A DNA stretch of 64,000 bases from an uncultured Oscillospiraceae bacterium (GCA_964496795.1 CAZCAV010000004.1:4660-68659); one strand, 5' to 3'; positions 2,977 to 21,467 are shown, numbered from the stretch's first letter. A program made the numbers and translations. Notes: generated by a model from the sequence alone, not told the origin.

Positions 2977-3974
2977 AGAGAATCATCAATGTTCCCGACA
3001 TGGTCGTCGAAGATATGCTCAAGGGCTTTCTGAAAGCCAATAAGGAAATCGTCGCGGCGACGGACGATCCCCGTGTTGTGAAACGGCTGAATGCGCCGCA
3101 GAAGGGAAAGGTCGGCGTCGTTACGGGCGGCGGCTCCGGACACAAGCCTGCGTTCGTCGGCTATGTGGGCGACGGCATGTGCGACGCGGTCGCCGTGGGC
3201 GAGGTATTCTCTTCTCCCACGGTGAAGGCATTCTACGACGCTTTTCACGCTGCGGACGGCGGCGCGGGCGTCGCCTGCCTGTACGGCAACTATGCCGGAG
3301 ACAATATGAATGTCAAAATGGCCGTCGAACTGGCAGAGGACGACAATCTGACGGTCAAGACCGTCGTCGCCAACGACGACGCTGCGTCCGCTTCCAGGGA
3401 TGAACGCGGCAAACGCAGGGGCGTCGCCGGCGAGGTATTCATGTGGAAGATTGGCGGAGCTGCCGCAGATCTTGGCTATTCGCTTGACGGCGTGATCGCC
3501 GCCGCCCAGAAGGCCATCGACAACACACGCTCCATCGGCATCGGTCTTACCCCATGCACAATCCCGGCGGTAGGGCATCCAAACTTCGAGATACCCGAAG
3601 GAAAAATGGAACTCGGCATCGGTCATCACGGCGAGCCGGGTACCAATGTATGCGACATGACGTCGGCGGATGAAATGGCGGCCATGATGGTCGAGACCGT
3701 TATACCCGATCTCCCCTTTGAAAAGGACGACGAGGTCGCCGTCATCGTCTCTGGTCTGGGCGCAACACCGGTGATGGAGCTGTACATTCTGTACGACCGC
3801 ATCGAAGAGCTGCTCGGCGAGCGCGGGATCCGCGTATACCGTTCCTTTGTGGGCAACTACTTTACGTCGCTGGAGATGATGGGCGCGACCTTCACCGCTA
3901 TGAAGCTCGACGATGAACTGAAGCGGCTGCTCGATCACGGCTGCCATACGGTCGGTCTGACGGTTATTGAGTGA
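2973..3974 (+). CDS. dhaK: Dihydroxyacetone-kinase family, DhaK-type substrate-binding subunit
   Basis: The track ORF 2811..3974 is trimmed to ATG 2973, giving an ATGA overlap with the upstream stop. The product starts MKRIINVPDMVVEDMLKGF and has the VVTGGGSGHKPAF motif. Confidence 0.85.
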   Translation: MKRIINVPDMVVEDMLKGFLKANKEIVAATDDPRVVKRLNAPQKGKVGVVTGGGSGHKPAFVGYVGDGMCDAVAVGEVFSSPTVKAFYDAFHAADGGAGVACLYGNYAGDNMNVKMAVELAEDDNLTVKTVVANDDAASASRDERGKRRGVAGEVFMWKIGGAAADLGYSLDGVIAAAQKAIDNTRSIGIGLTPCTIPAVGHPNFEIPEGKMELGIGHHGEPGTNVCDMTSADEMAAMMVETVIPDLPFEKDDEVAVIVSGLGATPVMELYILYDRIEELLGERGIRVYRSFVGNYFTSLEMMGATFTAMKLDDELKRLLDHGCHTVGLTVIE

Positions 3975-3987
3975 AGGAGGGTACGGA

Positions 3988-4632
3988 ATGTCATATTTCT
4001 TGAATGCGGACGGCAAGCAGATCGTTGAACGGATCATTGCAAGTATCCAGGAGAATAAAGTATACTTAAGCGACATCGACGGCCTGATCGGCGACGGCGA
4101 TCACGGGATCAACATGAACAAGGGCTTCACGATGTGCGCCGCCGAGATCGAGGGAAAGGATATCAGCTTCAGCGAGGCGCTCAGCACGCTTGGGCGCGTG
4201 CTGATGATGGAGATCGGCGGCTCCATGGGACCGCTGTACGGCAGCTTCTTCCGGAAGATGGGCCGCCGCTGCAAGGATCAGGAGAAAATCGACGCCGCAC
4301 TGTTCGCCGACATGATGAACGACGCCGTGGACGGCGTCGCCGGTATCGGGCATGCAGGGCTGGGTGACAAAACCCTGATGGACGTCCTGATCCCCGCCAA
4401 CGATGCCTGTCGGGCCGCGGCGGCAAGCGGCGCGCCGTTTGACCGCATGCTTCTGGATATGAAGTCAGCCGCAGAAACCGGTTGGGCGTCCACAAAGGAT
4501 ATGGTCGCAAAGGTTGGACGCGCCAGCCGCCTCGGCGAACGGTCGCGCGGCACGCTGGATGCAGGCGCGACCAGCTGTAACCTGATTTTACAGGCCATGG
4601 CGGATGCTATCGTGCCCCTGCTCGCCGAATAA
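3988..4632 (+). CDS. dhaL: Dihydroxyacetone-kinase family, DhaL-type nucleotide-binding subunit
   Basis: ATG 3988 is preceded by AAGGAGG. The product has the LIGDGDHGINMNKGF motif. The track start 3967 is a TTG without an RBS. Confidence 0.85.
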   Translation: MSYFLNADGKQIVERIIASIQENKVYLSDIDGLIGDGDHGINMNKGFTMCAAEIEGKDISFSEALSTLGRVLMMEIGGSMGPLYGSFFRKMGRRCKDQEKIDAALFADMMNDAVDGVAGIGHAGLGDKTLMDVLIPANDACRAAAASGAPFDRMLLDMKSAAETGWASTKDMVAKVGRASRLGERSRGTLDAGATSCNLILQAMADAIVPLLAE

Positions 4633-7511: not shown

Positions 7512-8597
7512 TCAGATATGGGAGACGACGATCGGGTTTTCCTTATCGTAGGGAAAGGGCACGCTTGCACCCGCTCTGGCGGAAGCAAAGCAGGCCTCCA
7601 GCACGGCCAGCACGCGGCGCACCTGCGGCGGCTGTACGATAAACGCGGCCCGTCCGTTGATAACGTCAATATAGTTCTTATAGAAGTCCGTCCAGTCCGT
7701 CTGCACCTGCGGCAGATCGGAGATCAGTATCTTCCCCGGCGGCACCCGCAAAAACGACCGCGTCGGGCCGGCAGGGTTCTCCTCGATGCGCGGAGGGAGC
7801 TTGGTAACGAGCTCGCTGGTGGTATATACGTTCCCTGTGCAGGCGAAATCCTCAATGATCGCCGTGCCTTTATCGCCGCAGATCAGCCAACGCGGCGCCG
7901 GCTTGAGCACAAAGGTCGACTGCGACAGACAGGCGGATTCCCCGTCCTCGAATTTCAGTATGATCCGGAAAAAATCCTCCACAAGCGGATTGTGTACGCT
8001 TTTGGCGTCCGTATAAACGGAATGCAGGGGCTTGGGGATCAGCGTCAGTATCTGATCGACCAGATGCACGCCCCAGTCATAGATCATGCCGCCGCCGAAC
8101 TGCGGGAACTGATGCCAGTTATGCACCTTCCCGTTGGGTGAATGCAGCGTGGATTCGATATTGAACACCGTGCCAAGCGTGCCCTCGTTATACAGGCGGC
8201 GCACGATGTTGAAGTCCCGATCCCAACGCCGGTTCTGATGCACCGTAAACAGCACGCCGCATTTTTGCGCCTCCGCGGTCATCTCGTCAAAATCCGTCAC
8301 GGTCAGCGCGGCCGGTTTCTCGCAGAGCACGTTCTTGCCCGCTCGCGCAGCCTTGATCGCATACTCTTTGTGCAGATGGTTCGGCACTGTCAGAAGCACC
8401 GTGTTGACCCTTGGATCGGCAAACAGCGCTTCCTCTGACGCGTATACGGGTATCTCTAGGCTGTCGTAATAGGCGTTCGGGTTCACATCGTAGGAGCCTA
8501 TGAGGTTCACGCCGCTGACCTTGACCGCATTATGCGCATGCCAGTAGCCCATGCCGCCAAAGCCAAGTATAGCGAGATTCATTTCCTGTTCTTTCAT
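7512..8597 (-). CDS. Gfo/Idh/MocA-family NAD(P)-dependent oxidoreductase
   Basis: The product has the Rossmann start LAILGFGGMGYWH and the VLCEKPAA motif. The RBS AAGGTGA lies 5 nt upstream. This is the last gene of the long minus-strand operon. Confidence 0.85.
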   Translation of the reverse strand: MKEQEMNLAILGFGGMGYWHAHNAVKVSGVNLIGSYDVNPNAYYDSLEIPVYASEEALFADPRVNTVLLTVPNHLHKEYAIKAARAGKNVLCEKPAALTVTDFDEMTAEAQKCGVLFTVHQNRRWDRDFNIVRRLYNEGTLGTVFNIESTLHSPNGKVHNWHQFPQFGGGMIYDWGVHLVDQILTLIPKPLHSVYTDAKSVHNPLVEDFFRIILKFEDGESACLSQSTFVLKPAPRWLICGDKGTAIIEDFACTGNVYTTSELVTKLPPRIEENPAGPTRSFLRVPPGKILISDLPQVQTDWTDFYKNYIDVINGRAAFIVQPPQVRRVLAVLEACFASARAGASVPFPYDKENPIVVSHI

Positions 8598-8608
8598 ATC
8601 TTCACCTT

Positions 8609-9550
8609 CTATTTTCGTAACGGTTTTCTGCGCGGATGCTGCGGATGCGCCGCATAATACGGCGTTGTCACGCCCACCTCGTCCTCGGGGATCAGGCGGC
8701 GGAACGTACCGTCCGCCTCCGCCCTGCTAAGCGTCCGGCTAAACAGGGGCATATCATGGGAAACGCCGACGGGCGCCGCTTCCTCATACGGAACAGCGGG
8801 ATGGATGGCGCCGCTCGGGCAGATCAGCTCGCAATAGGTGCAGCCATGGCGGTCGTCGCAGGCGTCGCCGCAGGAGCCAAAGCGTCCTGCGGCCAAATCT
8901 ATATACTGCATGGGACAATTGTCCATGCAGATACGGCATTTGGGATACCGGCATTTCGAGGCGTCCCGCAGCAGCCGTCCATGTACGTTATGAAATCCGC
9001 CAAGATGCTCTATGGCTGCATTGGCATGCAGCGGCTGCATGTGCGGCGCAGGCGCTTCGGGAAGGCTCCTGTCCGCGCCGCTTAAAAACCGGAGCGCCTT
9101 TTCGCCCACCGACCGTCCAAAATCCTGCGCCTCGGATATATCCGACGCGTCAGGATGGCCCGCCGTATAATACGGAAACGGAAAAATCTGAATACAGCAG
9201 TCTCCATACCAGCTTTTCCAGTCCAGCACGGAAAAACCTTTTTTCTGCAAGCGCGGAATGACAAGCGGAAAATACAGATCGGGCAGCGTTCCGTGCGTGC
9301 AGAACGAAAAGCAGGGCTTTCCCGCCTGCTCCGGCAGCGCTTCAATAAACAGCCGCACGTTCGGCGGCATTTCATACCAGACCGGCGAACCAATGCCGAT
9401 AAGATCCGCGCTCTCCAGCATCGCCGCCGTCGTATCGGAAAGAAAAGAGAGACGGACTTCCCATCCGGCGCTCTCGAGACCGCTAAAAACAGCGCGCGCA
9501 ATCGACTGCGTATTGCCGGTCTGCGAGTAATATACGATGCAGGCCTTCAT
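8609..9550 (-). CDS. Flavodoxin-like domain fused to a 2x[4Fe-4S] ferredoxin domain (EFR1-type)
   Basis: The product starts MKACIVYYSQTGNT. Its C-terminal part has the Cys clusters CRICMDNCP and CTYCELICP. Confidence 0.75.
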   Translation of the reverse strand: MKACIVYYSQTGNTQSIARAVFSGLESAGWEVRLSFLSDTTAAMLESADLIGIGSPVWYEMPPNVRLFIEALPEQAGKPCFSFCTHGTLPDLYFPLVIPRLQKKGFSVLDWKSWYGDCCIQIFPFPYYTAGHPDASDISEAQDFGRSVGEKALRFLSGADRSLPEAPAPHMQPLHANAAIEHLGGFHNVHGRLLRDASKCRYPKCRICMDNCPMQYIDLAAGRFGSCGDACDDRHGCTYCELICPSGAIHPAVPYEEAAPVGVSHDMPLFSRTLSRAEADGTFRRLIPEDEVGVTTPYYAAHPQHPRRKPLRK

Positions 9551-9553
9551 ATC

Positions 9554-10372
9554 CTATATTCTCCTGTTGTCATATATCAGGTTTGCGGGCTCGCCGTCGG
9601 CGCGCCGCGCGCTGCGTGCATCCGCCGCTCTGGCCAGCCGCATATCACGGCCGAACGCTTTGACGGGGATATCGTCCGTATCGCCCGCCGCCACCTCGTC
9701 GCAGAGGCGGATCATGGAGGGAAGCATGTCCGCAGAGCCCAGCGCGCAGCGGTGCGAAAGCAGCACCGCGTCATAGCGTCCGCGGGTCTCCAGTTCAAGC
9801 CGCGCCATCGCGCCCCTGTACGCGGAAACGGACAGGTCGAACAGCAGCGTATAGGGATTGCAGGCGTCTCCGGTCATCAGGAGCCTTTCCTCCGGAATCA
9901 GAAACGCCATGGAGCCCGGCGTATGCCCGGGCGCAGAAAAGGTCTCCACGCTGACGCCGCCCAGCGCAAAGCGCATGCCCGCCTCCAGCGACAGAAAACG
10001 CGCCGGATCGGGCGCGGGCAGCAGCACGGACGCGTCAAGGGGGACGCCCATCGTCCCGGCCATCCATTTCAGATAATCCGCACGCACGCTTGCCCTGCTC
10101 TGCTCGATGTACACTCCATGATCCAACGGGCTCATATAGACGGTGGAAAACGCCGACGCGCCCATGGCATGATCCACATGTCCGTGCGAGATCAGCACAC
10201 GAACCGGCAGGCCGGTCAAATGCGCCGTCCATTCCTTGAGCTCCGGATGGCCCACGCCCGTGTCTATCAGCACCGCCTGTCCCGTGCCGCAAATCAGATA
10301 TTGGATATCCCCTGACGCGGCATAGAGCGCCGTAACGTGCTTCGATATCGTTTCACTGCGGTAAAAGCCCAT
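9554..10372 (-). CDS. MBL-fold metallo-hydrolase
   Basis: The product has the LISHGHVDHAMG (HxHxDH) motif. I moved the start from TTG 10390 to ATG 10372, which has AGGGG 6 nt upstream. Confidence 0.8.
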   Translation of the reverse strand: MGFYRSETISKHVTALYAASGDIQYLICGTGQAVLIDTGVGHPELKEWTAHLTGLPVRVLISHGHVDHAMGASAFSTVYMSPLDHGVYIEQSRASVRADYLKWMAGTMGVPLDASVLLPAPDPARFLSLEAGMRFALGGVSVETFSAPGHTPGSMAFLIPEERLLMTGDACNPYTLLFDLSVSAYRGAMARLELETRGRYDAVLLSHRCALGSADMLPSMIRLCDEVAAGDTDDIPVKAFGRDMRLARAADARSARRADGEPANLIYDNRRI

Positions 10373-10380
10373 TCGCGCCC

Positions 10381-11328
10381 CTATTCCCAACGATACGGTT
10401 TCAGCTTTTCATTCAGATCGGGGATCTGGCCCGGGCCGACGGCGCGGGTCTTGATCTCCGTGGAGTGCTCGAGCTTTCCGGCATAGGTCAGGCGTGAACG
10501 CGCCTGCTCCTGTTCGGAAAAACTGATCTCCAGCCTTCCGTCCGCAGCTTCAAAAGCGCCGCGGATACCGCAGACGGGGCATTCCACGCTCAAACGGTCG
10601 TCCGAGACCGTCAGCATGTCGCAGTGGCAGACGGGGCATACCCCTTCGTGATCGCCGCGCCACATCTTGCGTCCTGCTTCGTCCTCGCACGCGAGCGCCT
10701 CGATCACATGCTGCGCCAGAGCCGTTGTGCGCGCCATGATGCGTTCGTTGCCTATGACATGATTAAAGGCCATGGCGCCGTGATATTCAAAGGTGTCCAC
10801 AACGTCCATGCCGGTAGACATCGACAGTGCATACATGGTCGGCAGCATGAACGCGAGCCAGTTCTTCGTCATTGCGCCCCCGACGGAAAAGAAAGCGGCG
10901 ACACGCGGCTTGAGCGAGCGCAGGTCGGGAAGCTGCTCCGGCGGCTTTCCGGCGGCAAGGCCCTCTTCAATAGCGGTCTTCCGAAAGCTGATATCATGCG
11001 ACGGCCCCATGCGATCGCAGATAGTCTTAAAGCGTCCGGTCGGCGTCATCTCATAGGTCGGGCAGCCGTATATCACAGCATCGGCCTCCAGAAACGCCTC
11101 GTCCAGAATGGGAAAATCGTCCTTATGCACGCACTCGCCGCGGCCTCTTCCGGTCATCATGCCCACCGTACAGGCAATGCAGCCCGTGCAGTTATGGATG
11201 TTCAGATCGTCCGCACGGATGAAGCGCACCTCATAACCCGCCTTTTCGCACTCCATCAGCGCATGCTTGACCATGACGTCGCAGTTCATCATTTTCCTGC
11301 CGAATGATATGCCTAAAACCTTTTTCAT
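10381..11328 (-). CDS. NADPH-dependent FMN reductase / iron-sulfur flavoprotein-like protein
   Basis: The track ORF 10381..11526 is trimmed to ATG 11328 (MKKVLGISFGRK), 7 nt after the upstream stop. The product has a compact Cys cluster, NCTGCIACT, and a second CPVCHC..CPVC pair. Confidence 0.7.
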   Translation of the reverse strand: MKKVLGISFGRKMMNCDVMVKHALMECEKAGYEVRFIRADDLNIHNCTGCIACTVGMMTGRGRGECVHKDDFPILDEAFLEADAVIYGCPTYEMTPTGRFKTICDRMGPSHDISFRKTAIEEGLAAGKPPEQLPDLRSLKPRVAAFFSVGGAMTKNWLAFMLPTMYALSMSTGMDVVDTFEYHGAMAFNHVIGNERIMARTTALAQHVIEALACEDEAGRKMWRGDHEGVCPVCHCDMLTVSDDRLSVECPVCGIRGAFEAADGRLEISFSEQEQARSRLTYAGKLEHSTEIKTRAVGPGQIPDLNEKLKPYRWE

Positions 11329-11335
11329 AAATCTC

Positions 11336-12322
11336 TCACTTTCCGCCGAAGTATCGCTCGCTGTACCGGCGGCACTCATCGCTGGCCCAGTCCCGCCTAC
11401 GCTGGAAATTTTCGTCCGTCGGATCGCCGATGATGATGGGAAACAGCATGAAATGACCGTCTCCTGCGTAATCGTCGATGCAGCGGCGCACCTCGCCGCG
11501 TACCTGCTCCTCCGTGGCGTTCTCAAAGCCCTGAGGCCCGTAGGAATCCCAGCCGCCGTGGATCAACAGCCGATCGCCGTATTCGCGCTCGATGCGCTTG
11601 AGATCGTTCATGCTTTGCGCCGTCTGCCAGATGGTCGCGCCCGTTTCCAGTATGTCGGGGATGATGCTCTCGCACTGGCCGCAGACATGATGCTCCACAA
11701 GCATACCATGGGAAGCCGCCGCCTGTCCAAGCTGCATCTCAAAGGGCTTTATCAGCTCACGGTAAAGCTGCGGTGAAAAGAACAAGCCCGTGGAGGAGCA
11801 GACGTCGTCGCCGTTGACATAGATATCCGGCTTATAGTATTGCGCCAGTTTTTCAATAGTTTTTATTTTGAAAGCAGTATGTGCTTCAAAAAAGTCGTAC
11901 ACCGCGTCGGTATCGGTCAGCATGGCCATGAGCGCCTCGCACACGCCCATAAGCGATTGCAGACGATTGAAATTGCCCTCCATGCCGAAGCAGCATACCA
12001 CCTTGTTTTCTCTGTCGATATTGGCCAGATCTTTCTTGGCATAGGCTTCCCAGTCGATGGACTCCAGATCGGGAAAGCTTATGATCTCGCGCCAGTCGTT
12101 GACGTCCGCAAGGATATGTTCATAGGGATCGGGGATGGCCTGATAGCCTGTATCCGGCGTAACGAGCCAGTTGACGCCGAACATGTCGCGGCCGCCCTTG
12201 CCCATCTCGCCTTGATTGTTCAGCGCGGAGGAACCCATCGGCGCATAGGCGTCGTAAAAGCATGGCGTCCAGGCAGGCGTCTCGTGCCGCAGCACGCGCA
12301 AAAAGTTTTCGCGCTCTGTCAT
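11336..12322 (-). CDS. Uroporphyrinogen-decarboxylase (URO-D) fold protein, MtaA/CmuA-like methyltransferase family
   Basis: The call rests on overall resemblance by eye, with no decisive motif. I moved the start to ATG 12322 (MTERENFLRVL), which has AAGGAG 4 nt upstream. Confidence 0.6.
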   Translation of the reverse strand: MTERENFLRVLRHETPAWTPCFYDAYAPMGSSALNNQGEMGKGGRDMFGVNWLVTPDTGYQAIPDPYEHILADVNDWREIISFPDLESIDWEAYAKKDLANIDRENKVVCCFGMEGNFNRLQSLMGVCEALMAMLTDTDAVYDFFEAHTAFKIKTIEKLAQYYKPDIYVNGDDVCSSTGLFFSPQLYRELIKPFEMQLGQAAASHGMLVEHHVCGQCESIIPDILETGATIWQTAQSMNDLKRIEREYGDRLLIHGGWDSYGPQGFENATEEQVRGEVRRCIDDYAGDGHFMLFPIIIGDPTDENFQRRRDWASDECRRYSERYFGGK

Positions 12323-12381: not shown

Positions 12382-13476
12382 TTAGAAATCGTCGCGGCTG
12401 ACCGAGGTCACATGACCGGTCTCGAGGTACTCATCCACGGTATCCGCATCGACAAAGGTCGTGCCCGCCATCTGAACGTGACCGCTCTCCACGGTGCCGT
12501 CATAGATGCCGGTGACCATCTGCATCAGCTCGGTTGCTGTATCGTCCACGCTGCCGGTAAGCACCATGCCGCGCAGCGGCGAATTGCCGTCGACGGAGCT
12601 CTTGATGGTCTCCGCCATGGCGTTGTCGCCGTTGATGCAGAAGATGCCCAGGTTGCTGTAATCGGTGACAGGCGAGCTCAGAGAGGTAAAGAAGCTGTTG
12701 ATGCCGTTGCCGAGGCCGCTATGCGCGGACAGGAACACCTGAATCTCCGGGTTGGTCGTATAGAGATTCTCCATCTTGGCAAGGCCGGTCTCCTGGGTCT
12801 CGTCCTCGCAGGCTACCTCGATGACAAACTTGGCCTTCTGAGAAAACTGCTCGATTTTCAGCAGCTCGTCAGCCTGCACCACGCCGGTGTCGGCGGTACG
12901 GCAGGAGAACACCGCAACGAGAACGGAATGATCCTCAGCATCCGCAAAGGTCGCGTCGATCCACTTTGCCGCGAGCTTGGCGCAGCAATCGGCCAGATCC
13001 GCGTTGTCGGAGAGCATGACCACGTCAAATTTTTCCGTCTGCGCCACAAAGGCAACGACCTTGATGTCGGCTGCGATCGCCTGATCGATGACAGCGCCCA
13101 TGGCTTCCGGCGCGACCGCCCAGAGCACCAGCACGTCTACGCCCATGGCGATATAGTTTTCACAGGCTTCGATCTGCGCGGTCGGATCGAACTTGCCGTC
13201 CGCATAGCTGGCTTCCCAGCCCGCTTCGTTCATCTTGACAACATAGGCATCGGCGAGCTGCTGGAAAAAGTCGCCGCCAAGGCCAAAGGTCACAAAGCCG
13301 ACGACCGGCTTTGCGCCGTCTGCCGCTTCCTCCGGCGCAGCTTCCACAGTCCCCTCGACGATGGCTTCCGCGGCTTCCGTGACAGCAGGCGCTTCCTGGG
13401 CTGCGGGTGCGGCGCATCCGATCATCGCCATAGCGACAAGCGCAAGCGTCAGCAGAATAGATATGGTTCTTTTCAT
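12382..13476 (-). CDS. Sugar ABC transporter substrate-binding lipoprotein (ribose/monosaccharide type)
   Basis: The start is at ATG 13476, preceded by GGAGG. The product has the lipoprotein signal MKRTISILLTLALVAMAMIGC followed by an Ala/Glu/Pro linker. Confidence 0.75.
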   Translation of the reverse strand: MKRTISILLTLALVAMAMIGCAAPAAQEAPAVTEAAEAIVEGTVEAAPEEAADGAKPVVGFVTFGLGGDFFQQLADAYVVKMNEAGWEASYADGKFDPTAQIEACENYIAMGVDVLVLWAVAPEAMGAVIDQAIAADIKVVAFVAQTEKFDVVMLSDNADLADCCAKLAAKWIDATFADAEDHSVLVAVFSCRTADTGVVQADELLKIEQFSQKAKFVIEVACEDETQETGLAKMENLYTTNPEIQVFLSAHSGLGNGINSFFTSLSSPVTDYSNLGIFCINGDNAMAETIKSSVDGNSPLRGMVLTGSVDDTATELMQMVTGIYDGTVESGHVQMAGTTFVDADTVDEYLETGHVTSVSRDDF

Positions 13477-13528
13477 GTTTGGTTTCCTCCTTTTTATTAT
13501 GTCATGCGGGATGATACCCGCTGGCATG

Positions 13529-14494
13529 TCACATGGATTTTGCGTTGCGGTTGCTAAGGTAGAGCGACACGAGCATGATCACGCCCTTGGCGATATACTG
13601 TGGATAGGCGCCAAGGTTGATGAGCTGCATACCGTTGCTGAGTACCCCGAGCACGAACACGGCAACGATCGCCTTCCAAAGGGTGCCTTCGCCGCCCTTG
13701 AGCGCAACGCCCGAAAGCACACAGGCAATGATGCCGGTAAACTCGATGCCCGTACCCGTGCCGGAATCGGCCGAGCCTGCGCGCGATGAGATCAATACCG
13801 CCGAGATGCCGACCAGTACGCCCGCCAGCGTAAAGGCCAGCACCTTGATGCGCGCTACATTGAGACCGGCCAGCCGCGCCGCTTCCGGGTTGTCGCCCGC
13901 GGCAAAGGCGCGTCTTCCGATAAATGTCTTGCCCATGACAACCCCAACGATCAATACGATAACGAGCATGATGACCACATTGAGCGGCAGCCAGCCAAAC
14001 AGGCGGCCCTGCCCGATATACATATAAGCCTTTGGCAGATTGTGAAAGGTCTTGGAGCCGCTGATCAAATAGGAAATGCCCTGAAAGATCGCCATGGTCG
14101 CCAGAGTCACGATCATGGGCTGACTCTTGAGCTTGATGGCCATCACGCCGTTGAAGGTGCCAAGCAGGCTGCACAGCATTATACCGAGAATGACCGCGAG
14201 CCACGCGGGCAGTATCCCTTCGCTGACGGTCTTGGCGATCAGCACCGCAGCCACCGACATCTGATAGCCGATCGACAGGTCGCAGCCGCCGCTGATCATG
14301 ATGATAAACACCGCCGAGGTACATACGGCCACATGCACGTTCTGCACCAAAATATTCGTGAGATTGACCTTGGTCAAAAACTTGTCCGACAGACAACTGA
14401 ATACGATCAGCAGCAGCAGCAGCAATATCGGCATGGACATATCCGCCAGCACCTGCCCGAAGGTCTTTTTTTGCTTTATCGTGATGCTTTCCAT
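13529..14494 (-). CDS. Sugar ABC transporter permease (RbsC-like)
   Basis: The product is multi-pass and hydrophobic. The start is ATG 14494 (MESITIKQ), preceded by GAGGGGG. Confidence 0.85.
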   Translation of the reverse strand: MESITIKQKKTFGQVLADMSMPILLLLLLIVFSCLSDKFLTKVNLTNILVQNVHVAVCTSAVFIIMISGGCDLSIGYQMSVAAVLIAKTVSEGILPAWLAVILGIMLCSLLGTFNGVMAIKLKSQPMIVTLATMAIFQGISYLISGSKTFHNLPKAYMYIGQGRLFGWLPLNVVIMLVIVLIVGVVMGKTFIGRRAFAAGDNPEAARLAGLNVARIKVLAFTLAGVLVGISAVLISSRAGSADSGTGTGIEFTGIIACVLSGVALKGGEGTLWKAIVAVFVLGVLSNGMQLINLGAYPQYIAKGVIMLVSLYLSNRNAKSM

Positions 14495-14505
14495 TTCGTT
14501 CCCCC

Positions 14506-15981
14506 TCATATTCCCGATGCAAGGGACAGTATTCGTTCCTGCTCAAATTCATCCTGCTGCAAGACGCCGGCCTGCCGACCCTCGTGCAGCACAACGATGC
14601 GCTCCGACATGCCAAGCAGCTCCTCCATATCCGACGAGACCATCAGTATGGATTTGCCCTGCTCCGTCAGTTCGATCATGAGCTGGTATATCTCCTGCCG
14701 CGCGCCCACGTCGATGCCGCGCGTCGGCTCGTCGAATATCAGGATGTCCGGCTCGATTGCCAGCACCTTCGCTACGACCACCTTCTGCTGATTGCCGCCT
14801 GAAAGGTACATTGCCTGCTGCCTGAGCGACGGCGTTTTGATGCGGAGCCTCTCACGGTATTCCTCCGCCTGCGCCATCTCGCGTTTGCGATCAATGATGA
14901 GTCCCTTGCTGAGCTTATAGATGTTGGATATCGTAATGTTCCAGTAGACCGGCTTTTCGATGAAGCAGCCTTGAAACTTCCGGTCCTCGGGGATCAGCCC
15001 GATGCCGGCCGCAAGCCCGTCGCTGGGATTTCTGGCATGCAGCGGCTTCCCGTGAAGAAGAATCTCGCCCGCGCTTCGCTTCGCCGCGCCAAACAGGAGG
15101 TGCATCAGCTCCGTGCGGCCTGCGCCCACGAGGCCCGCAAAGCCCAGTATCTCTCCTTTATGCAGTGTAAAGCTGATATCGCTGAGTCCGTTGCCGCAAA
15201 GCCCGCGCGCTTCCAGAACCGCCTCTTGGGAGGCGGCCGGCTTTTGAGGATAATTGGAGGAAAGCTCGCGGCCGACCATCAGCCGCACCATCTCCCCCTT
15301 GTCCAGCTCGTGGATAGGTCTTGTCGTCACAAATCTGCCGTCGCGCAGCACCGTCACGCGGTCGCATATCTCAAACAGCTCTTCAAGCCGGTGCGAAATA
15401 TAGATGATCGTAACGCCGCGCGCCTTGAGCTCGCGTATGATGCGGAACAGATTCTGCTGCTCCTCCACCGTGATGGCGGCGGTGGGCTCGTCCATAATGA
15501 CGATCTTTGCGTCCTTGACTATCGCCTTGGCCATCTCCACGATCTGCCGGTTCGCTACGGACAGCTCGCGCACAAGCGCCGCAGGCGATACCTGACAATG
15601 GAACTGATCCAGCAGCTCCCGCGTCCGTCTGGCCATCGCACGGTCGTCCGTGAACACGCCGCGTTTCTGCTTCATGCCCATGAATATATTGTCCGCCACA
15701 GTCATGGCGTCGAACTGGATCAGCTCCTGATATACCACCGCGATGCCCAGACCGATCGTGATCGCGGGCTCCAGACAGGCGTAGTCCCGCCCGCCGATCG
15801 TGATCGTACCGGAATCCGGCCGGATCGCGCCGGAGATCGTTTTGATAAAGGTAGATTTTCCTGCGCCGTTTTCGCCGATGATCGCATGCACCTCGCCCCT
15901 GTCAAACGAGATGGATACATCATCCAGCGCCTTTACGCCCGGATAGGTTTTCGTAATGTGTTTCAGCGACAGTACTTCCAT
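14506..15981 (-). CDS. Sugar ABC transporter ATP-binding protein with two ABC domains
   Basis: The product has Walker A GENGAGKST, a second P-loop GLVGAGRTEL, and the signature LSGGNQQK. Confidence 0.9.
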   Translation of the reverse strand: MEVLSLKHITKTYPGVKALDDVSISFDRGEVHAIIGENGAGKSTFIKTISGAIRPDSGTITIGGRDYACLEPAITIGLGIAVVYQELIQFDAMTVADNIFMGMKQKRGVFTDDRAMARRTRELLDQFHCQVSPAALVRELSVANRQIVEMAKAIVKDAKIVIMDEPTAAITVEEQQNLFRIIRELKARGVTIIYISHRLEELFEICDRVTVLRDGRFVTTRPIHELDKGEMVRLMVGRELSSNYPQKPAASQEAVLEARGLCGNGLSDISFTLHKGEILGFAGLVGAGRTELMHLLFGAAKRSAGEILLHGKPLHARNPSDGLAAGIGLIPEDRKFQGCFIEKPVYWNITISNIYKLSKGLIIDRKREMAQAEEYRERLRIKTPSLRQQAMYLSGGNQQKVVVAKVLAIEPDILIFDEPTRGIDVGARQEIYQLMIELTEQGKSILMVSSDMEELLGMSERIVVLHEGRQAGVLQQDEFEQERILSLASGI

Positions 15982-16002: not shown

Positions 16003-16962
16003 TTACGCCCACCACATCTCGCCGGCGCGTTCGCGGATGATCACTCGTCTAAGAAGCGCGGCGGCTTTTTCAAGCCCTTCGTTAATGGACATCATGCCAT
16101 CCTCATGCTCAATGCTGATAGCGCCGTCATAGCCGACGGTCTGTAAAGCGGTCATCATCTCGCGCCACATCCGCTCGTCCATGCCGTAGCCCACCGTACG
16201 GAAGGACCATGCACGGGCTGCAAAATTCCCGTAATGCTTCGTATCCAGCACGCCGATCTTTGCCGTGTTTTCCGCATCGATGCGCGTGTCCTTGGCATGG
16301 AAATGATAGATGCTGCCGCCAAGATAGCGGATCGCCGCCACGGGGTCCATGCCCTGCCAGATCAGGTGCGACGGGTCGAAGTTCGCGCCGATGGTATCAC
16401 CCACCGCTGCACGCAGCTTCAGGCAGGTCTCCGTATTGTACACGCAGAAGCCCGGGTGCATCTCCAGCGCGATCTTTTTTACGCCATGATCGTTTGCAAA
16501 GGCGACGGCCTTTTCCCAGTACGGGATGAGTACCTCGTTCCATTGGTAATCCAGCACATGCAGGAAATCCTCCGGCCACGGGCATACGACCCAGTTGGGC
16601 GTCGCATCCGCGGGGCTTCCGCCCGGGCAGCCCGAAAACGTCACCAGCGTGTCCACGCCAAGCTTCTCGGCAAACAGCACGGCTGCTTCATAGTCCCGCT
16701 GGAATCTGTCCGCCTCGCTTTTATCGGGATGGACGCAGTTGCCGTGCACGGAGATGGCGGAGATGCTCATGCCGTACTTGTTCAGCAGCTCCAGCAGCTC
16801 CTCGGGTTTTTTCTCTCCGTCCATATACGCCCTTGTGTGCGTGTTTCCCGGGAACCCGCCCGCGCCGAGCTCCACCTGCTCGACGCCAAGACCATGCAGA
16901 TACTTGAGCGTATCCTCAAGGGGCATGCCGTAAAACGGAACCGTCAGTACGCTTAACTTCAT
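16003..16962 (-). CDS. Xylose-isomerase-like TIM-barrel protein (sugar phosphate isomerase/epimerase family)
   Basis: The track ORF 16003..17277 is trimmed to ATG 16962 (MKLSVLTVPFYG), preceded by GGAGGG. The discarded N-terminal extension is Arg/Gly-rich junk. Confidence 0.8.
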   Translation of the reverse strand: MKLSVLTVPFYGMPLEDTLKYLHGLGVEQVELGAGGFPGNTHTRAYMDGEKKPEELLELLNKYGMSISAISVHGNCVHPDKSEADRFQRDYEAAVLFAEKLGVDTLVTFSGCPGGSPADATPNWVVCPWPEDFLHVLDYQWNEVLIPYWEKAVAFANDHGVKKIALEMHPGFCVYNTETCLKLRAAVGDTIGANFDPSHLIWQGMDPVAAIRYLGGSIYHFHAKDTRIDAENTAKIGVLDTKHYGNFAARAWSFRTVGYGMDERMWREMMTALQTVGYDGAISIEHEDGMMSINEGLEKAAALLRRVIIRERAGEMWWA

Positions 16963-16973
16963 ATTTCCCTCCG

Positions 16974-18086
16974 TCACTGATTCAGCAGCACTTCGTGTCC
17001 GGTGCGCGCGGATTCGTATATGGCCTCCAGTATCTGCGTGACCACGAACGCCTGCTCCGGCTTGACCAGCGGCTCGGTATCGTTCCGTATCGCCTCCAGC
17101 CATTGTCTGGCTTCCACAAGACCCGGCTCCGCGCCCGCGCCTTCGAAGTAAGCGACGTTGCCGGCGCCGGTCAGGCGCTCCTCGGTCAGCATGCCGTTGT
17201 GGCCGCGGTTGATAATGAGCTCGTCTACGGGGTAGCTCATGCCGGAGCGTATCTCCGCGCCCGCCTTTGTGCCGCAAAGCGTGGTGGACGCCTCCCTGGA
17301 ATCGAGCACGTTCAGCGCCCAGGACGCCTCCAGATTGATGCAGGAACCGTCCTTCATTTTGATCATACCGAAAGCGGAGTCCTCCACCTCATAGGTCTCG
17401 GGATCCCACGGCCCGAACATATTGCCCTCGGTTGCCTGAGGCAGATGCCCCAGCTTATAGAACACGCTGCCAGAAACCGACGCCGGCTCATAATTGTTCA
17501 TCATCCACAGCGTGATGTCCAGCGCATGCGTGCCGATATCGATAAGCGGCCCGCCGCCCTGCAGGGCCTTGTTTGGAAACACGCCCCATGTGGGCACGGC
17601 ACGCCGCCGCAGCGCGTAGGCCTTGGCATAATATATCTCGCCCAGCTCGCCTGCCAGGCAGTTCCTGTGCAGCATCTGTACCTCGGGGCGAAACCGGTTT
17701 TGATAAGCGACGGTGAACTTCATGCCGCTTTTTCTCCATGCGTCCAGCATCTTTTGCGCGTCTGCGGTCGAATGCGCCATAGGCTTTTCGCACATGACAT
17801 GCTTCCCCGCTTCGAGCGCCGCGACAGTGGCTTCACAGTGCGCAACATTCGGCGTGAGCACATGCACTACGTCAATATCAGCCTCCCGATACATTTTCCG
17901 GTAATCCGTATATACCCTTGCGCCGTCCGCGCCGTGCTCCCTGGCCGCCGTTTCGGCGCGCTCGGGAATGATGTCGCAAAAGGCGGTCATCTCGCACAGC
18001 TCCGGAAGCTTTGACAGCGCCGCTATGTGCTTGTTATTGGCAATGCCGCCGCAGCCGACAAGGCCGATCCTCAGTTTCTTAGCCAT
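16974..18086 (-). CDS. Gfo/Idh/MocA-family oxidoreductase
   Basis: The product has the motifs RIGLVGCGGIANNKH and VMCEKPMA. Confidence 0.85.
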   Translation of the reverse strand: MAKKLRIGLVGCGGIANNKHIAALSKLPELCEMTAFCDIIPERAETAAREHGADGARVYTDYRKMYREADIDVVHVLTPNVAHCEATVAALEAGKHVMCEKPMAHSTADAQKMLDAWRKSGMKFTVAYQNRFRPEVQMLHRNCLAGELGEIYYAKAYALRRRAVPTWGVFPNKALQGGGPLIDIGTHALDITLWMMNNYEPASVSGSVFYKLGHLPQATEGNMFGPWDPETYEVEDSAFGMIKMKDGSCINLEASWALNVLDSREASTTLCGTKAGAEIRSGMSYPVDELIINRGHNGMLTEERLTGAGNVAYFEGAGAEPGLVEARQWLEAIRNDTEPLVKPEQAFVVTQILEAIYESARTGHEVLLNQ

Positions 18087-18103: not shown

Positions 18104-19858
18104 CTAGCGCAGTATGTAATCGAAGCTCTGATAGCGCGGCGGGATCACCGGAAGCTGCAGGCAGGAAGCATACTGTCCTCCCGTATGAACAACCGGCCGT
18201 CCCTGATTATCCGTCACCCATTTCAGACGCTCGAACCAACCCGCATCGCGCAGATACCTGCCCGCTATTTGCAGCCGTATGGTCTCTCCCTTGTGCCAGA
18301 TACGGCAATAGGGCACAAAGCAGACGTCGATAGGCACGATCTGGCCCGCCGAAAGCTTCTGCTCCTCGTCAAAGGACTGTACGGGCTTCTCGGGCCTGCT
18401 GTTTTTCGCCAGCTTGCGCATTGAGACGCGCAGCTTGCTCCATGCGCCCGGATGCGGCTCGTTCAGTACGGAGACGGGGATCTCCCGCCCGCCTTCGCCA
18501 AGCTTCTTGACCGTAAAGAACAGATCGGCGTCGTCGTATCCCTCGACGGACACAAACGCGTGCAGGCTCATGTAGCCCGTGATCTCCGTTTCCTCGGGCA
18601 CGGCATAGTCAAAATTGAGCGTGCCGTTTTCGGGATCGAAGGACGCGCTTGCCTCCTGTGCGGGCGCCTCGGGCGTCATAGCGCCGGAGGCGGCGTTCAG
18701 GTACAGCTTGCGGTACCGTGTGCGCGCCGGCGGAAATTCCTTTTCGGGGCGCGCGGCCTGATAATCGTAATCAAACGCGTCCATGACCTGCAAGCGAACG
18801 CGCGGCACAAACTCAAAGCCGTTATTGATATCCTTCAGGAACCGGTCGAAAAACCCTGTCAGCTCCTGAATATTGTAATAATCATAGGTGTCCGGCCACT
18901 CAAATTCGCGGTGCGTACGCATCCACTTGTTCCGCGATTTGATGCCGCGAAAGCCTTCAAACGAGCCAATGATATGAAAGTGATTCCAGCACGCGGTGTA
19001 ATAGGTCGGAATGCGAATGTTGGCGTATTGCGGGATCTTGTCCTGCCAATATGCGTTGCACAGCGGATACGCCTGCGCCATAGCCAGCGGATCCTCTATA
19101 TAGCCGTTGCCGGCGACCATGCCGATCACGCTCTCCGAATACAGGCCGAATATGCCGCCCTCGCGCAGGGATTCGCGGTACAGATCGCCTGTCGCCTCCC
19201 ATGGCGCAATGCAGACAAGATGCGGCGGGATCTCCGCCGCGATGCGAAGCTGCGCCATGCCGACGCCGGAATTGCCGAACATGCCAACGCGGCCGTCGCA
19301 CCACGGCTGCGCGGCGCACCACTCGATAAAGTCATACCCGTCGCGGCCCTCCTGCACGCCCATGAATACCGCATCGCCCTCGCTGTGGCCGATGCCGCGC
19401 GGATCGATGTTCGCAACGCCGTAGCCATGACGGCACCAGTAAGCGGGATCGGCGGATTCAAATTTAGCCATTTTTGACACCGTATGCGGGGGAACGCCCA
19501 TCAGCCGCCATTCGTCAAAGCCCTCGCCCGGACGCTTGCCAAACGGGCTCCACGAGCAGATGACCGGCACGGGGCCGCTCCCCGCGGGCAGGAAGACGTC
19601 CGCATAAATGATCGTTCCGTCACGCAGCGGCACCGCCATGTCCTGATGGCAGCAGACGTCCTTTGCCGCCATATAGCTGCGCTGGTTGAAATCCGCCACG
19701 AATGAGAACATGTCCCTCTTTTCCGGCGGCAGAGCGTCCTGCTCCGCACGCGAAAGCGGTTTGCGAAGCTTACGGTATATTACATCGACCGTTTCGTCGC
19801 CAAAGCGGGTCGGCACGATCTTGTATCGGGGGTCGTTTCTGAAATCGTTCAACGTCAT
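18104..19858 (-). CDS. CocE/NonD-family alpha/beta hydrolase (S15 X-Pro dipeptidyl-peptidase-like esterase)
   Basis: The 584-aa product has the nucleophile-elbow-like motif MFGNSGVGM and a long C-terminal extension typical of this family. Confidence 0.7.
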   Translation of the reverse strand: MTLNDFRNDPRYKIVPTRFGDETVDVIYRKLRKPLSRAEQDALPPEKRDMFSFVADFNQRSYMAAKDVCCHQDMAVPLRDGTIIYADVFLPAGSGPVPVICSWSPFGKRPGEGFDEWRLMGVPPHTVSKMAKFESADPAYWCRHGYGVANIDPRGIGHSEGDAVFMGVQEGRDGYDFIEWCAAQPWCDGRVGMFGNSGVGMAQLRIAAEIPPHLVCIAPWEATGDLYRESLREGGIFGLYSESVIGMVAGNGYIEDPLAMAQAYPLCNAYWQDKIPQYANIRIPTYYTACWNHFHIIGSFEGFRGIKSRNKWMRTHREFEWPDTYDYYNIQELTGFFDRFLKDINNGFEFVPRVRLQVMDAFDYDYQAARPEKEFPPARTRYRKLYLNAASGAMTPEAPAQEASASFDPENGTLNFDYAVPEETEITGYMSLHAFVSVEGYDDADLFFTVKKLGEGGREIPVSVLNEPHPGAWSKLRVSMRKLAKNSRPEKPVQSFDEEQKLSAGQIVPIDVCFVPYCRIWHKGETIRLQIAGRYLRDAGWFERLKWVTDNQGRPVVHTGGQYASCLQLPVIPPRYQSFDYILR

Positions 19859-19868
19859 ATTTCTTTCC

Positions 19869-20837
19869 TCAGCTCTCCAGAATTCCGGTGCACAGGGTCA
19901 CAAAGCGCGTCAGCTGCTCCTCGGAATCCACAGCGCTTGAAAAATGATGCCCTTCATATTCGCTCGCGATGTAGCCGCGATAGCCCAGGCCGCGTACGGT
20001 CCGGAGTATTTCCTCAAAGGGAATACAGGGATCGTGCCTGTCGTTTTCCAGATAATAGAACTTGCCGTGCATATAGAACGCACAGTCTATGATATCCTTC
20101 CACTGCTCCATACGCGCAGGCGCGGAAAACTTATGGAACATTTCCTCTGCGGTGCGCATTTCTATCTCGTTGAATCCCCGGCCCTCCAGCTCAGCCGCCG
20201 CCGCGCCGCGCGCGTGCATGGCGACGATCTCGTCGAGCTTGTCCCTGCGGCAGCCAAACTCTATCGCCTGATCCAGATACAGCTTGTGCGGCATGCGCTG
20301 GAAAATGGAAAAGTCGGGCACAAAGCCTAAAACGCCCTTTCCCTCGTGCTTCATAATGTCAAAGTATTCCTTCCAGACGGGCACCTCGGGATGATGGGGA
20401 TGGTGCATCTCGATGGTCAGCTTCATCCCAAGCTCCCTGCAGAAGGGAATCATCTTGCGAAAAATTGCCGGCGAGATCGCATGCTGCGTACGCACCATGG
20501 GAAATCCCGCGCGCTTGGCATACAATAGATCGTTGACTGTAAACTGTATGATCTCCTGCTCGGTCAGATCGCGGTCGGAGCGAATGCCCATATCGATGTA
20601 TGCGCTCCAGCAGACGGGCTCCAGCCCGTATTCCTCAAGCTTGCCGCGGAACCAGTCCAACCATGCGTCGGAGGGATACGGATATTCCGGAACCATCTGC
20701 GCCGCGACGATCTCTACGCCCTTATAGCCCATGCGGTGCGCCTTATCCAGCAGCTGCTCAAGATCCAGCCTTTCATGTATGTATTCTGTGGAAAAGCTGT
20801 ATAGCGACACGCCGAGCCTGATCTCTGTGTTTTCCAT
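19869..20837 (-). CDS. Xylose-isomerase-like TIM-barrel protein, candidate C-glycoside deglycosidase alpha subunit
   Basis: The 322-aa product starts MENTEIRLGVSLYSFSTEY. It lies 15 nt downstream of the 137-aa partner gene. The fold family is confident; the specific role is inferred from gene context. Confidence 0.7.
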   Translation of the reverse strand: MENTEIRLGVSLYSFSTEYIHERLDLEQLLDKAHRMGYKGVEIVAAQMVPEYPYPSDAWLDWFRGKLEEYGLEPVCWSAYIDMGIRSDRDLTEQEIIQFTVNDLLYAKRAGFPMVRTQHAISPAIFRKMIPFCRELGMKLTIEMHHPHHPEVPVWKEYFDIMKHEGKGVLGFVPDFSIFQRMPHKLYLDQAIEFGCRRDKLDEIVAMHARGAAAAELEGRGFNEIEMRTAEEMFHKFSAPARMEQWKDIIDCAFYMHGKFYYLENDRHDPCIPFEEILRTVRGLGYRGYIASEYEGHHFSSAVDSEEQLTRFVTLCTGILES

Positions 20838-20852: not shown

Positions 20853-21266
20853 TTACGCGCGCAGCCTTTCGCTGCGATCGCTCTCCAGCACCAGGTATTC
20901 CCCGAAATAGCCGGTGTACGGTACGCGGTGACGCATCCTCACGCGCACCGTATGCTCTCCCGCGCTTAATGCGCCGCTGCTGCTCACGCGGATAACGGCG
21001 GGTGTGCGCACAAACCAGTATTCCTTAAAGCATTCCGGCAGCTCCGAGAGCAAAAACTGCTTCCCGTTCAGCACAAACGTCACGTCGCCGGCGTCTATGC
21101 CGTTTCCGTCCACCCAGATATCCAACGCTTCGATGCAGCTTAAAAAGGCGCCGCGATAGGACGGGTACTTGATCTGAAATTCATAGCCGACGCAGACGGA
21201 GCCCGCATAGACGTTTTGAATGTCCGTCGGACAGATCAATATCTCATTATAGGCTTGAAAATCCAT
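20853..21266 (-). CDS. 137-aa soluble protein, candidate C-glycoside deglycosidase beta subunit (DUF6379-like)
   Basis: The start is ATG 21266, preceded by GAGGGAGG at 6 nt. The product has no signal peptide or TM segment. Its size and its position directly upstream of a TIM-barrel gene match DgpB/CarC-type subunits; this is from recollection and is not aligned. Confidence 0.55.
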   Translation of the reverse strand: MDFQAYNEILICPTDIQNVYAGSVCVGYEFQIKYPSYRGAFLSCIEALDIWVDGNGIDAGDVTFVLNGKQFLLSELPECFKEYWFVRTPAVIRVSSSGALSAGEHTVRVRMRHRVPYTGYFGEYLVLESDRSERLRA

Positions 21267-21292
21267 AATCAGCCTCCCTCTCTTGTGACACA

Positions 21293-21444
21293 AGTATACT
21301 TCCTGCCGGCCAATATCACAGCTTGGTTTTTATCCATAATGAGCGTTAAATTCTATCCGCGTTTGGACAATTTGATTTTTTTGCTTCAAAAACTAAAATT
21401 CGGATAAAATTTATAGTGATATTTTTATCCTTCTATGATATACT
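21293..21444. promoter_or_regulatory. Divergent control region with three TTTTATCC boxes and two TATACT -10 elements
   Basis: The boxes are at 21327-21335 (+), 21402-21409 (reverse) and 21422-21430 (+). The palindromic AGTATACT at 21293-21300 could serve the minus operon. The extended -10 TGATATACT at 21436-21444 could serve the araC-type gene. Confidence 0.45.
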
Positions 21445-21467
21445 GCCGGCATGCGGGGAGGTGCGCC

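Follow-up and report, generated by a model that had tools for sequence, protein, structure and literature searches.

Accessory genes for putative aglycone processing within a C-glycoside deglycosidase operon of an uncultured Oscillospiraceae bacterium

Within a 64,000-nucleotide stretch of DNA from an uncultured Oscillospiraceae bacterium (GCA_964496795.1, CAZCAV010000004.1:4660-68659; herein the window), four consecutive genes encoding a URO-D family protein, an FMN_red-type flavoprotein, an MBL-fold hydrolase, and a flavodoxin-ferredoxin fusion (Fld-Fd) are embedded in an operon for C-glycoside deglycosylation. We propose that they probably encode accessory aglycone-processing enzymes of C-glycosyl flavonoid catabolism and not a single enzyme system; the block would consist of separately recruited genes, with all functions predicted from sequence, modeled structure, and gene context. 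This proposal builds on what is established directly: the identities of the domains, the conserved residues, the partners encoded in trans, and the gene neighborhoods that recur. Each component is a further member of a known family, and the biochemistry is mostly known in a new arrangement. Undescribed in the literature searched are the recurrent attachment to Dgp clusters of genes for flavone reductase (FLR)-like proteins, for Fld-Fd, and for orphan methyltransferases of the substrate-specific type (MT-I), and the candidate electron donor of FLR to which it points.

Four Genes in One Operon

The interval from 8609 to 12322 is filled exactly by four successive minus-strand open reading frames (ORFs). 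The gaps across the four genes are 7, ∼8, and 3 nt, with a further 11 nt to the gene of a Gfo/Idh/MocA oxidoreductase (Gfo1) that ends the operon; 59 nt separate the block from the upstream gene for a substrate-binding protein (SBP). No intergenic terminator-like site was found, the search giving 19 matches versus 12.9 ± 4.4 in a shuffled background, which is no clear excess. From its CGDB, DgpC-type, and DgpA genes, the surrounding operon is identified as a genuine C-glycoside deglycosidase cluster (Table 1). An initial annotation made from the window sequence had described four consecutive genes within such an operon, and the ORFs, their domains, the gaps of 3 to 11 nt, and the Dgp core all confirm it.

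We considered whether the four-gene block is a conserved unit and rejected this. Loci of URO-D orthologs at 54 to 68% identity contain none of the other three genes in the vicinity, and the 80 metagenome loci of MBL hydrolase relatives (31 to 42% identity) show a single weak FLR-like match and no neighboring gene for a URO-D, Fld-Fd, or corrinoid protein.

A Predicted Flavone Reductase in Dgp-Type Clusters

A phmmer search of the Protein Data Bank (PDB) with the flavoprotein returns one relative, 7D38 ("Cd1"; E 7.8e-39; residues 3 through 295 versus 2 through 278, 93% of the query). Entries 7D38 through 7D3B are structures of the flavone reductase FLR of Flavonifractor plautii (Yang et al. 2021, PMC7862272). 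In FLR, D103, G106, W149, H271, and I275 act in FMN or substrate binding according to mutagenesis or structure (PMC7862272), and all of these, together with V144 and G146, are matched in the window protein. FLR S147 is replaced by Ala, a change that leaves FLR fully active when introduced as the S147A mutant (PMC7862272). Two four-Cys motifs (C47/50/53/66 and C231/234/250/253), laid out as an N-terminal CxxCxxC..C and a C-terminal CPxCH..CxxCG ribbon, are common to FLR and the window protein and are invariant in 11 FLR-like homologs, as are the His, Trp, and Gly-Gly positions. The AlphaFold2 (AF2) model (predicted local distance difference test [pLDDT] 81.9) again has 7D38 as its top Foldseek match (E 1.5e-18; next match 6.5e-07). 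Both proteins comprise a WrbA-like FMN domain followed by a C-terminal beta subdomain and a helix tail that are absent from WrbA; in the window protein the strands span residues 247 through 269 and the helices 282 through 312.

On these comparisons the "iron-sulfur flavoprotein" of the initial annotation is a homolog of the flavone ene-reductase FLR, and flavone reduction is its predicted activity. The FMN reductase domain (PF03358) and the two Cys motifs had been recognized correctly; a place in the activation machinery of a demethylase was not supported, and homology to FLR accounts for the presence of a redox flavoprotein. An alternative raised at the same time, that the aglycone undergoes some redox reaction not yet described, comes near in spirit, although reduction of the flavone C2=C3 bond was described in 2021. 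The eight invariant cysteines of the FLR family could represent a zinc ribbon and a [4Fe-4S] cluster that has been lost; the FLR paper (PMC7862272) nowhere mentions cysteines, metals, or ferredoxin.

Unlike FLR, the window gene is located inside a deglycosidase operon, with the Fld-Fd gene two genes downstream. FLR-like genes recur in such surroundings: they are found in Dgp-type clusters of the window, of contig C16 in the same genome, and of genomes G229, G094, G395, G841, and G804. Three other genomes have relatives that are 61, 61, and 47% identical to the window protein, each encoded amid DgpA-like (61 to 70%), DgpC-like, and Gfo genes. In G094 the cluster is syntenic, with the window's order of DgpB, DgpC, DgpA, ABC transporter, and FLR-like genes; its three transporter genes are 66 to 78% identical to those of the window and the FLR-like gene is directly next, with an esterase gene in place of the MBL gene and no URO-D gene. 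The conserved partnership of FLR-like genes thus joins them to Dgp clusters rather than to URO-D genes, a linkage that receives no mention in the Dgp and Catenibacillus literature searched.

Further genes accompany FLR-like genes elsewhere. The G094 cluster has an end gene of the FAD_binding_2 type (fumarate-reductase-like) and a PF00756 esterase gene directly after the FLR-like gene (L131 2168-3694, 8905-9693), which hints at additional aglycone or de-acylation steps. In the genome of the window, three more FLR-like paralogs (28 to 31% identical to the protein described here) are interleaved with two LysR genes, an MFS gene, and a SnoaL-like gene on contig C7 (33000-39200); one of them has no three-residue insertion of the kind described below and is in this respect closer to canonical FLR. 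Contig C7 also carries a paralog (53%) of the operon's CocE/NonD hydrolase.

Fld-Fd as a Candidate Electron Carrier

The description of the fourth gene as a flavodoxin-ferredoxin fusion was borne out by its Flavodoxin_1/3/5 matches, its FMN loop, and its eight conserved cysteines. Across 26 homologs the loop residues S9, G12, N13, and T14 and all eight Cys, grouped as Cx4Cx2Cx3C and Cx5Cx2Cx3CP, are invariant or nearly so. The layout, a flavodoxin-like domain with a 4Fe-4S dicluster, is that of EFR1-family ferredoxins, although the match to the corresponding NCBIfam model (NF038196, residues 5 through 250) scores 56.1 bits versus a cut-off of 75. Fld-Fd differs from that family in the odd spacing of the first Cys of each cluster and in added motifs, invariant among its homologs (F81-x-F83-x-T85-H86 and T129-x-G131-H132-P133-D134). 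A literature search on the EFR1 name yielded no lead. A disguised B12-binding domain was considered and ruled out by the canonical flavodoxin phosphate loop, S-x-T-G-N-T. We regard Fld-Fd as a candidate low-potential electron carrier with predicted [4Fe-4S]-type clusters.

Such fusions are rare. At E ≤ 1e-20 a match is present in one other of 399 genomes of the class (distant, at 35%, and covering the flavodoxin half), and at E ≤ 1e-40 there is none in 400 genomes of the order; a large protein collection holds ∼50 clusters of full-length orthologs at 55 to 66% identity. Dgp-type genes lie within 10 kb at six of eight loci with Fld-Fd homologs (40 to 63% identity), these contexts having been obtained by following genomes with URO-D orthologs and their relatives. 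In a Saccharofermentans metagenome-assembled genome (MAG; locus L168) the genes run URO-D, URO-D, FLR-like, Fld-Fd, Gfo, and then ABC transporter, the same order as in the window at just 32 to 48% identity, with the Gfo gene following the Fld-Fd gene in both. At another locus (L167) a URO-D-like gene neighbors a 63% Fld-Fd ortholog, with an opposite-strand ORF between them.

NAD(P)H does not serve FLR as electron donor, and the chain that supplies its electrons "remains to be explored" (PMC7862272), which leads us to infer that Fld-Fd reduces the FLR-like enzyme. Given that it shares one operon with a URO-D gene at two loci and lies close to one at a third, Fld-Fd could also serve as a reductant for corrinoid reactivation. 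It is possible, if on balance doubtful, that Fld-Fd is the missing reductant of FLR-type enzymes, delivering electrons of ferredoxin level through their eight-Cys motifs, and that together with the orphan MT-I it makes up a recurrent "aglycone module" on Dgp clusters of Clostridia. The literature searched contains no link between FLR and ferredoxin.

A different use for the two redox proteins would be as an electron sink that re-oxidizes the tightly bound NADH of DgpA and so makes sugar oxidation independent of 3-oxo-glucose. In its favor, DgpA retains NAD(H) tightly and in vitro depends on an external hydride acceptor, and both redox proteins recur beside DgpA-like genes. We nevertheless consider it very unlikely: NAD(P)H is not used by FLR, 3-oxo-glucose and a second Gfo enzyme already keep the pathway in redox balance, and the His and Ile of FLR that contact the flavone are conserved.

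Longer relatives of Fld-Fd (398 to 428 aa) occur at two loci of genome G395 (L135 and L136), accompanied by LysR genes, 474-aa proteins with no Pfam match, a zinc-dependent alcohol dehydrogenase, and a hotdog-fold protein, surroundings that suggest further catabolic modules served by the same kind of electron carrier.

An Orphan URO-D Protein of the Methyltransferase Type

Among the NCBIfam models listed for the URO-D protein, the best matches are MtaA/MtbA/CmuA models and no others. By sequence its sole PDB relative is MtaA of Methanosarcina mazei (4AY7), and this similarity is marginal (E 0.52; 0.0015 in a profile search). The alignment nevertheless places HHVCGQC of the window protein on LHICGNV of MtaA, so that H212-x-C214-G215 falls on the HICG zinc motif. 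An alignment of 29 homologs has 21 invariant columns, including D172, D173, H212, C214, G215, Q236, N239, D240, and E316. The AF2 model (pLDDT 94.7) matches MtaA (Foldseek TM-score 0.70 to 4AY7/4AY8) slightly better than URO-D decarboxylases (0.64 to 0.67), with MetE zinc methyltransferases lower.

Gene context and phylogeny, the evidence that decides the matter, point in the same direction. Relatives at 33 to 40% identity in other Clostridia have a corrinoid protein within 7 kb at six of 11 loci; at four of these six it is directly upstream of the URO-D gene, and three are ordered MT-II, corrinoid protein, URO-D, where MT-II is the second methyltransferase of such systems. DD172-173, H212-x-C214-G215, N239, and E316 are kept in 12 of 12 relatives of this set and D240 in 11 of 12. 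In a maximum-likelihood tree the clade of the window protein (8 rows, support 100/99) is nested in a 28-row clade (100/98) that takes in every corrinoid-protein-linked row, far from the genome's best match to the URO-D model (contig C35). Together these data support assignment of the protein to the MtaA/MT-I type of methyltransferase, as the initial annotation had supposed, and not to HemE, with methyl transfer as the predicted activity. It is a distant member of the family and, to judge from its sequence, no equivalog of MtaA. The likeness to MT-I is drawn from fold, motif, and gene context.

That the protein might instead be a cofactor-free HemE-type decarboxylase acting on a carboxylated aglycone is suggested by Foldseek scores to human and bacterial URO-D that are no worse than those to MtaA. 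This we hold to be most improbable, in view of the invariant H-x-C-G motif of the MtaA type, NCBIfam matches to MtaA/MtbA/CmuA solely, and placement in the clade of corrinoid-protein-linked genes; neither loss of the metal site nor clustering with HemE, which the initial annotation had named as grounds for abandoning the methyltransferase reading, was observed.

The close orthologs (54 to 68% identity) are always orphans. Two lie beside a Crp/Fnr regulator gene, and one, in Saccharofermentans, directly follows CGDB and its alpha subunit. A paralog 88% identical to the window protein is part of the second Dgp-type cluster on contig C16. One may ask whether the URO-D, FLR-like, and Fld-Fd proteins form a corrinoid-free, three-protein module for an undescribed reaction on the C-glycoside, the aglycone, or a sugar-derived enone. 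The order URO-D, FLR-like, Fld-Fd, Gfo shared by the window and the distant genome of L168, the lack of a corrinoid protein next to any close URO-D ortholog, and the presence among the structural matches of the corrinoid-independent zinc methyltransferase MetE would all fit. We think such a module quite unlikely, however, since the invariant residues of the URO-D protein are the same as in URO-D proteins encoded directly after corrinoid proteins, MtaC-type corrinoid proteins are encoded in every genome with a URO-D ortholog, and Dgp clusters lacking a URO-D gene can likewise carry FLR-like and Fld-Fd genes.

The contig that contains the window (C4) carries one more URO-D family gene, a distant relative (26% identity), at 3714-4322, ∼350 to 950 bp before the window starts.

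Corrinoid Partners Encoded in Trans

Profile searches of the contig that contains the window find neither a B12-binding domain nor a RACo-type activase, in agreement with the earlier statement that the window has no B12-binding protein or RamA-type activase. The possibility, raised with it, that the partners are encoded elsewhere proved correct in a genome-wide search for B12-binding domains. The genome has 13 URO-D family genes and three B12-binding matches. One of the latter (C2:55793-56428) is an MtaC-type corrinoid protein with a B12-binding_2 cap (PF02607) and a B12-binding domain (PF02310), flanked on one side by a RACo activator (Fer2, PF17651, PF14574) and on the other by a pterin-binding methyltransferase (MT-II); the set spans C2:54020-57299. 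The only matches in the genome to the RACo ASKHA domain (PF14574) are at C2:45070-45843 and C2:54023-54754, the second RACo gene lying 9 kb from the corrinoid set. A few kilobases beyond the activator are genes that we take, from their sequence starts, to be of the acs type. The other two B12-binding matches are, from the same kind of evidence, presumably B12-binding subunits of aminomutases. All five other genomes with URO-D orthologs have 1 to 5 matches to the B12 cap domain, each including at least one ORF of MtaC size (215 to 263 aa), and 4 to 13 URO-D genes.

The O-demethylases of acetogens (Acetobacterium dehalogenans, Desulfitobacterium hafniense, and Eubacterium limosum/callanderi) consist of MT-I, a corrinoid protein, MT-II, and an activating enzyme, with substrate specificity set by MT-I (PMC12915777). 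The genome of the window likewise encodes a corrinoid protein, MT-II, and a RACo-type activator, and its URO-D protein has the URO-D fold and H-x-C-G motif in common with acetogen MT-I, although its gene differs in being embedded in a C-glycoside deglycosidase operon, away from the corrinoid protein. Many scattered MT-I genes (13) with few corrinoid proteins fit the acetogen pattern. The trans-encoded corrinoid protein/MT-II/RACo set explains why the window has no corrinoid protein, and we infer that this MT-I uses the corrinoid protein on C2. In a first look, some Clostridia genomes have 13 to 42 URO-D candidates versus a handful of corrinoid proteins, and putative MT-I genes have undergone a large, mostly uncharacterized expansion in some Clostridia.

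It had been suggested that the four genes resemble an O-demethylase with its own reductive activation, in which the flavoprotein and Fld-Fd would form the activation machinery and the corrinoid carrier would be supplied in trans. The URO-D protein is indeed of the MT-I type, and Fld-Fd shares an operon with URO-D genes in the window and L168 and lies close to one in L167. Flavodoxin is, moreover, the known reductant that reactivates cobalamin-dependent methionine synthase in Escherichia coli. Several observations speak against this model: the flavoprotein is FLR-like and has the substrate-binding residues of FLR; FLR-like genes occur in Dgp clusters with no URO-D gene within the regions examined (G094, G229, and G395); a dedicated RACo activator already adjoins the corrinoid protein on C2; canonical operons of relatives, ordered MT-II, corrinoid protein, URO-D, have no Fld-Fd or FLR-like gene; and an opposite-strand ORF intervenes between the URO-D and Fld-Fd genes of L167. 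With the flavoprotein partnered with Dgp clusters, and closer relatives of the MBL hydrolase never found beside URO-D, FLR-like, Fld-Fd, or corrinoid genes at the 80 loci, this suggestion did not stand up, and a self-contained O-demethylase appears unlikely.

The MBL Hydrolase

The prediction of an MBL-fold hydrolase was upheld by a PF00753 match and a full set of zinc ligands (H69-x-H71-x-D73-H74, H156, D175, and H213), invariant in 31 sequences, from which the protein is predicted to have a complete binuclear zinc site. Its nearest PDB relatives are glyoxalase-II-like. At the 80 loci of its relatives described above, the recurrent neighbors are sugar ABC transporters, GH78/GH106 rhamnosidases, an MFS glycoside carrier, and ROK kinases; on a Catenibacillus contig that also has a gene of the DgpC-like type, 9 kb separate an Fld-Fd gene from a gene for a related MBL protein. 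The protein is probably a glycoside-associated hydrolase, for which de-acylation or lactone opening would be a guess. A bergenin-type pathway (lactone opening, deglycosylation, demethylation) was considered as an explanation for the hydrolases and set aside as speculation, having no gene-level support in the literature searched.

A Proposed Pathway and Its Weighing

Under the proposal of separately recruited, accessory aglycone-processing enzymes, the ABC transporter would import the glycoside, DgpA would oxidize its sugar at C3'', and DgpB/DgpC would cleave the C-C bond; salvage of the keto-sugar would then fall to the TIM-barrel protein together with the Gfo enzyme encoded last, Gfo1 being likely a keto-sugar reductase with a DgpF-like role. 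The URO-D protein would act as the substrate-specific MT-I of a corrinoid-dependent O-demethylase, transferring the methyl of a methoxy group to the MtaC-type corrinoid protein on C2. From there the adjacent MT-II would pass the methyl to tetrahydrofolate and on to the neighboring Wood-Ljungdahl genes' pathway, with the RACo-type activator keeping cobalt reduced. The FLR-type flavoprotein would reduce the C2=C3 double bond of a flavone or flavonol, receiving low-potential electrons from Fld-Fd, most likely through its conserved four-Cys motif, and Fld-Fd may possibly supply RACo as well. The MBL hydrolase may remove an ester or lactone decoration or perform another hydrolytic step. Both the substrates and the electron route are predictions.

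A number of results weigh against this proposal. The NCBIfam scores of the URO-D protein fall far below the cut-offs (NF040654 MtaA, 43.9 versus 400; TIGR01463 MtaA/CmuA, 35.5 versus 235). MtaA has a third, C-terminal Cys as zinc ligand, whereas no Cys that follows C214 is conserved in the 29 homologs of the URO-D protein. The model classification and zinc-ligand check that the initial annotation had recommended gave the H-x-C ligands and matches to MtaA/MtbA/CmuA models but neither the third Cys nor scores above the cut-offs. The corrinoid-protein-linked relatives likewise have no third Cys, and the invariant E316, the only conserved candidate ligand, may possibly take its place. No corrinoid protein adjoins any of the URO-D orthologs at 54 to 68% identity. 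As the genome is a MAG that is 74% complete, the partner counts are floors. For the FLR-like protein, identity to FLR is ∼32% when counted from the phmmer alignment and 26% in the Foldseek alignment, a borderline value for the homolog screen of the FLR paper, which used at least 30% identity and at least 80% coverage (PMC7862272). The Dgp-linked FLR-like subclade has, unlike FLR, a three-residue insertion beside W149, and with this modest identity the substrate range may therefore differ from that of FLR. FLR is reported to be specific for flavones and flavonols, whereas the DgpA of the window is closest to the enzyme for puerarin, an isoflavone. Finally, genomes G229 and G094 gave no Fld-Fd match either in the 20-kb regions around the FLR-like gene or in the class-wide genome search; their Dgp clusters have an FLR-like gene all the same, so the pairing is not obligatory.

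If the more doubtful reading of a recurrent "aglycone module" is true, a single operon would take up methoxylated C-glycosyl flavonoids, split their C-C bond, O-demethylate them, and reduce the ring. Foods and herbal medicines commonly contain flavonoids of the C-glycosyl and methoxylated kinds (vitexin, orientin, puerarin, and their methyl ethers), and a few gut anaerobes release the bioactive aglycones and transform them. Judging from this locus, deglycosylation and the initial steps on the aglycone may be encoded together by some Clostridia, as a single regulated unit, and the locus offers candidates for an orphan URO-D-type methyltransferase acting on flavonoids and for the in vivo reductant of FLR. 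It also indicates that a corrinoid protein missing beside a URO-D or MttB gene is normal in such acetogen-like genomes, where one corrinoid protein/MT-II/activator set by the Wood-Ljungdahl genes plausibly serves many scattered, substrate-specific methyltransferases.

The Surrounding Operon and Related Clusters

The operon runs from 21293 down to 7512 in the order of Table 1. In common with the dgpA-H puerarin operon of strain PUE (7XR9, 7BVR/7EXZ) it has DgpA, a DgpC-type subunit, CGDB, and a second Gfo enzyme; it adds the ABC importer, CocE/NonD, URO-D, FLR-like, MBL, and Fld-Fd genes, none of which is mentioned for dgp clusters in the literature searched.

Table 1. Genes of the C-glycoside deglycosidase operon in the window, in operon order
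Feature	Position	Strand	Evidence
CGDB beta subunit / DgpB	20853-21293	minus	PF19906
DgpC-type alpha subunit	19869-20837	minus	7BVR, E 2.7e-59
CocE/NonD hydrolase	18104-19858	minus	within C-glycoside deglycosidase core
DgpA	16974-18086	minus	7XR9, E 2.4e-164
TIM-barrel protein, distantly like 2-hydroxy-3-keto-glucal hydratase	16003-16953	minus	distant similarity
Sugar ABC transporter (ATPase, permease, SBP), directly upstream of the four genes	12382-15981	minus	Peripla_BP_4 match and ORFs
URO-D family protein, 328 aa	11336-12322	minus	PF01208, 42.8 bits versus cut-off 23.9
FMN_red-type (FLR-type) flavoprotein, 315 aa	10381-11328	minus	PF03358
MBL-fold (Lactamase_B-type) metallo-hydrolase, 272-278 aa	9554-10390	minus	PF00753
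Flavodoxin and eight-Cys domain fusion (Fld-Fd), 313 aa	8609-9550	minus	Flavodoxin_1/3/5 matches
Gfo/Idh/MocA oxidoreductase (Gfo1), last gene of the operon	7512-8597	minus	Pfam and NCBIfam matches

The second Dgp-type cluster of the same genome (C16:14000-33000) contains an ABC permease, the URO-D paralog (88%), an 840-aa protein with no Pfam match, DgpC-like, DgpA-like (71%), Gfo (80%), FLR-like (36%), TIM-barrel (84%), and GH43 genes, the identities being to the genes of the window. Their unevenness argues against a simple recent duplication.

Divergent from the operon, an AraC regulator fused to a GH39-like domain is encoded at 21435 to 23903 on the plus strand of the window. The fusion recurs, confirmed by Pfam, as an 824-aa protein in the syntenic G094 cluster (L131 6399-8873), and an 851-aa ORF holds the equivalent place in G229 (L130 16184-18739), matched by position. 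The fusion looks like a conserved sensor-regulator of such operons.

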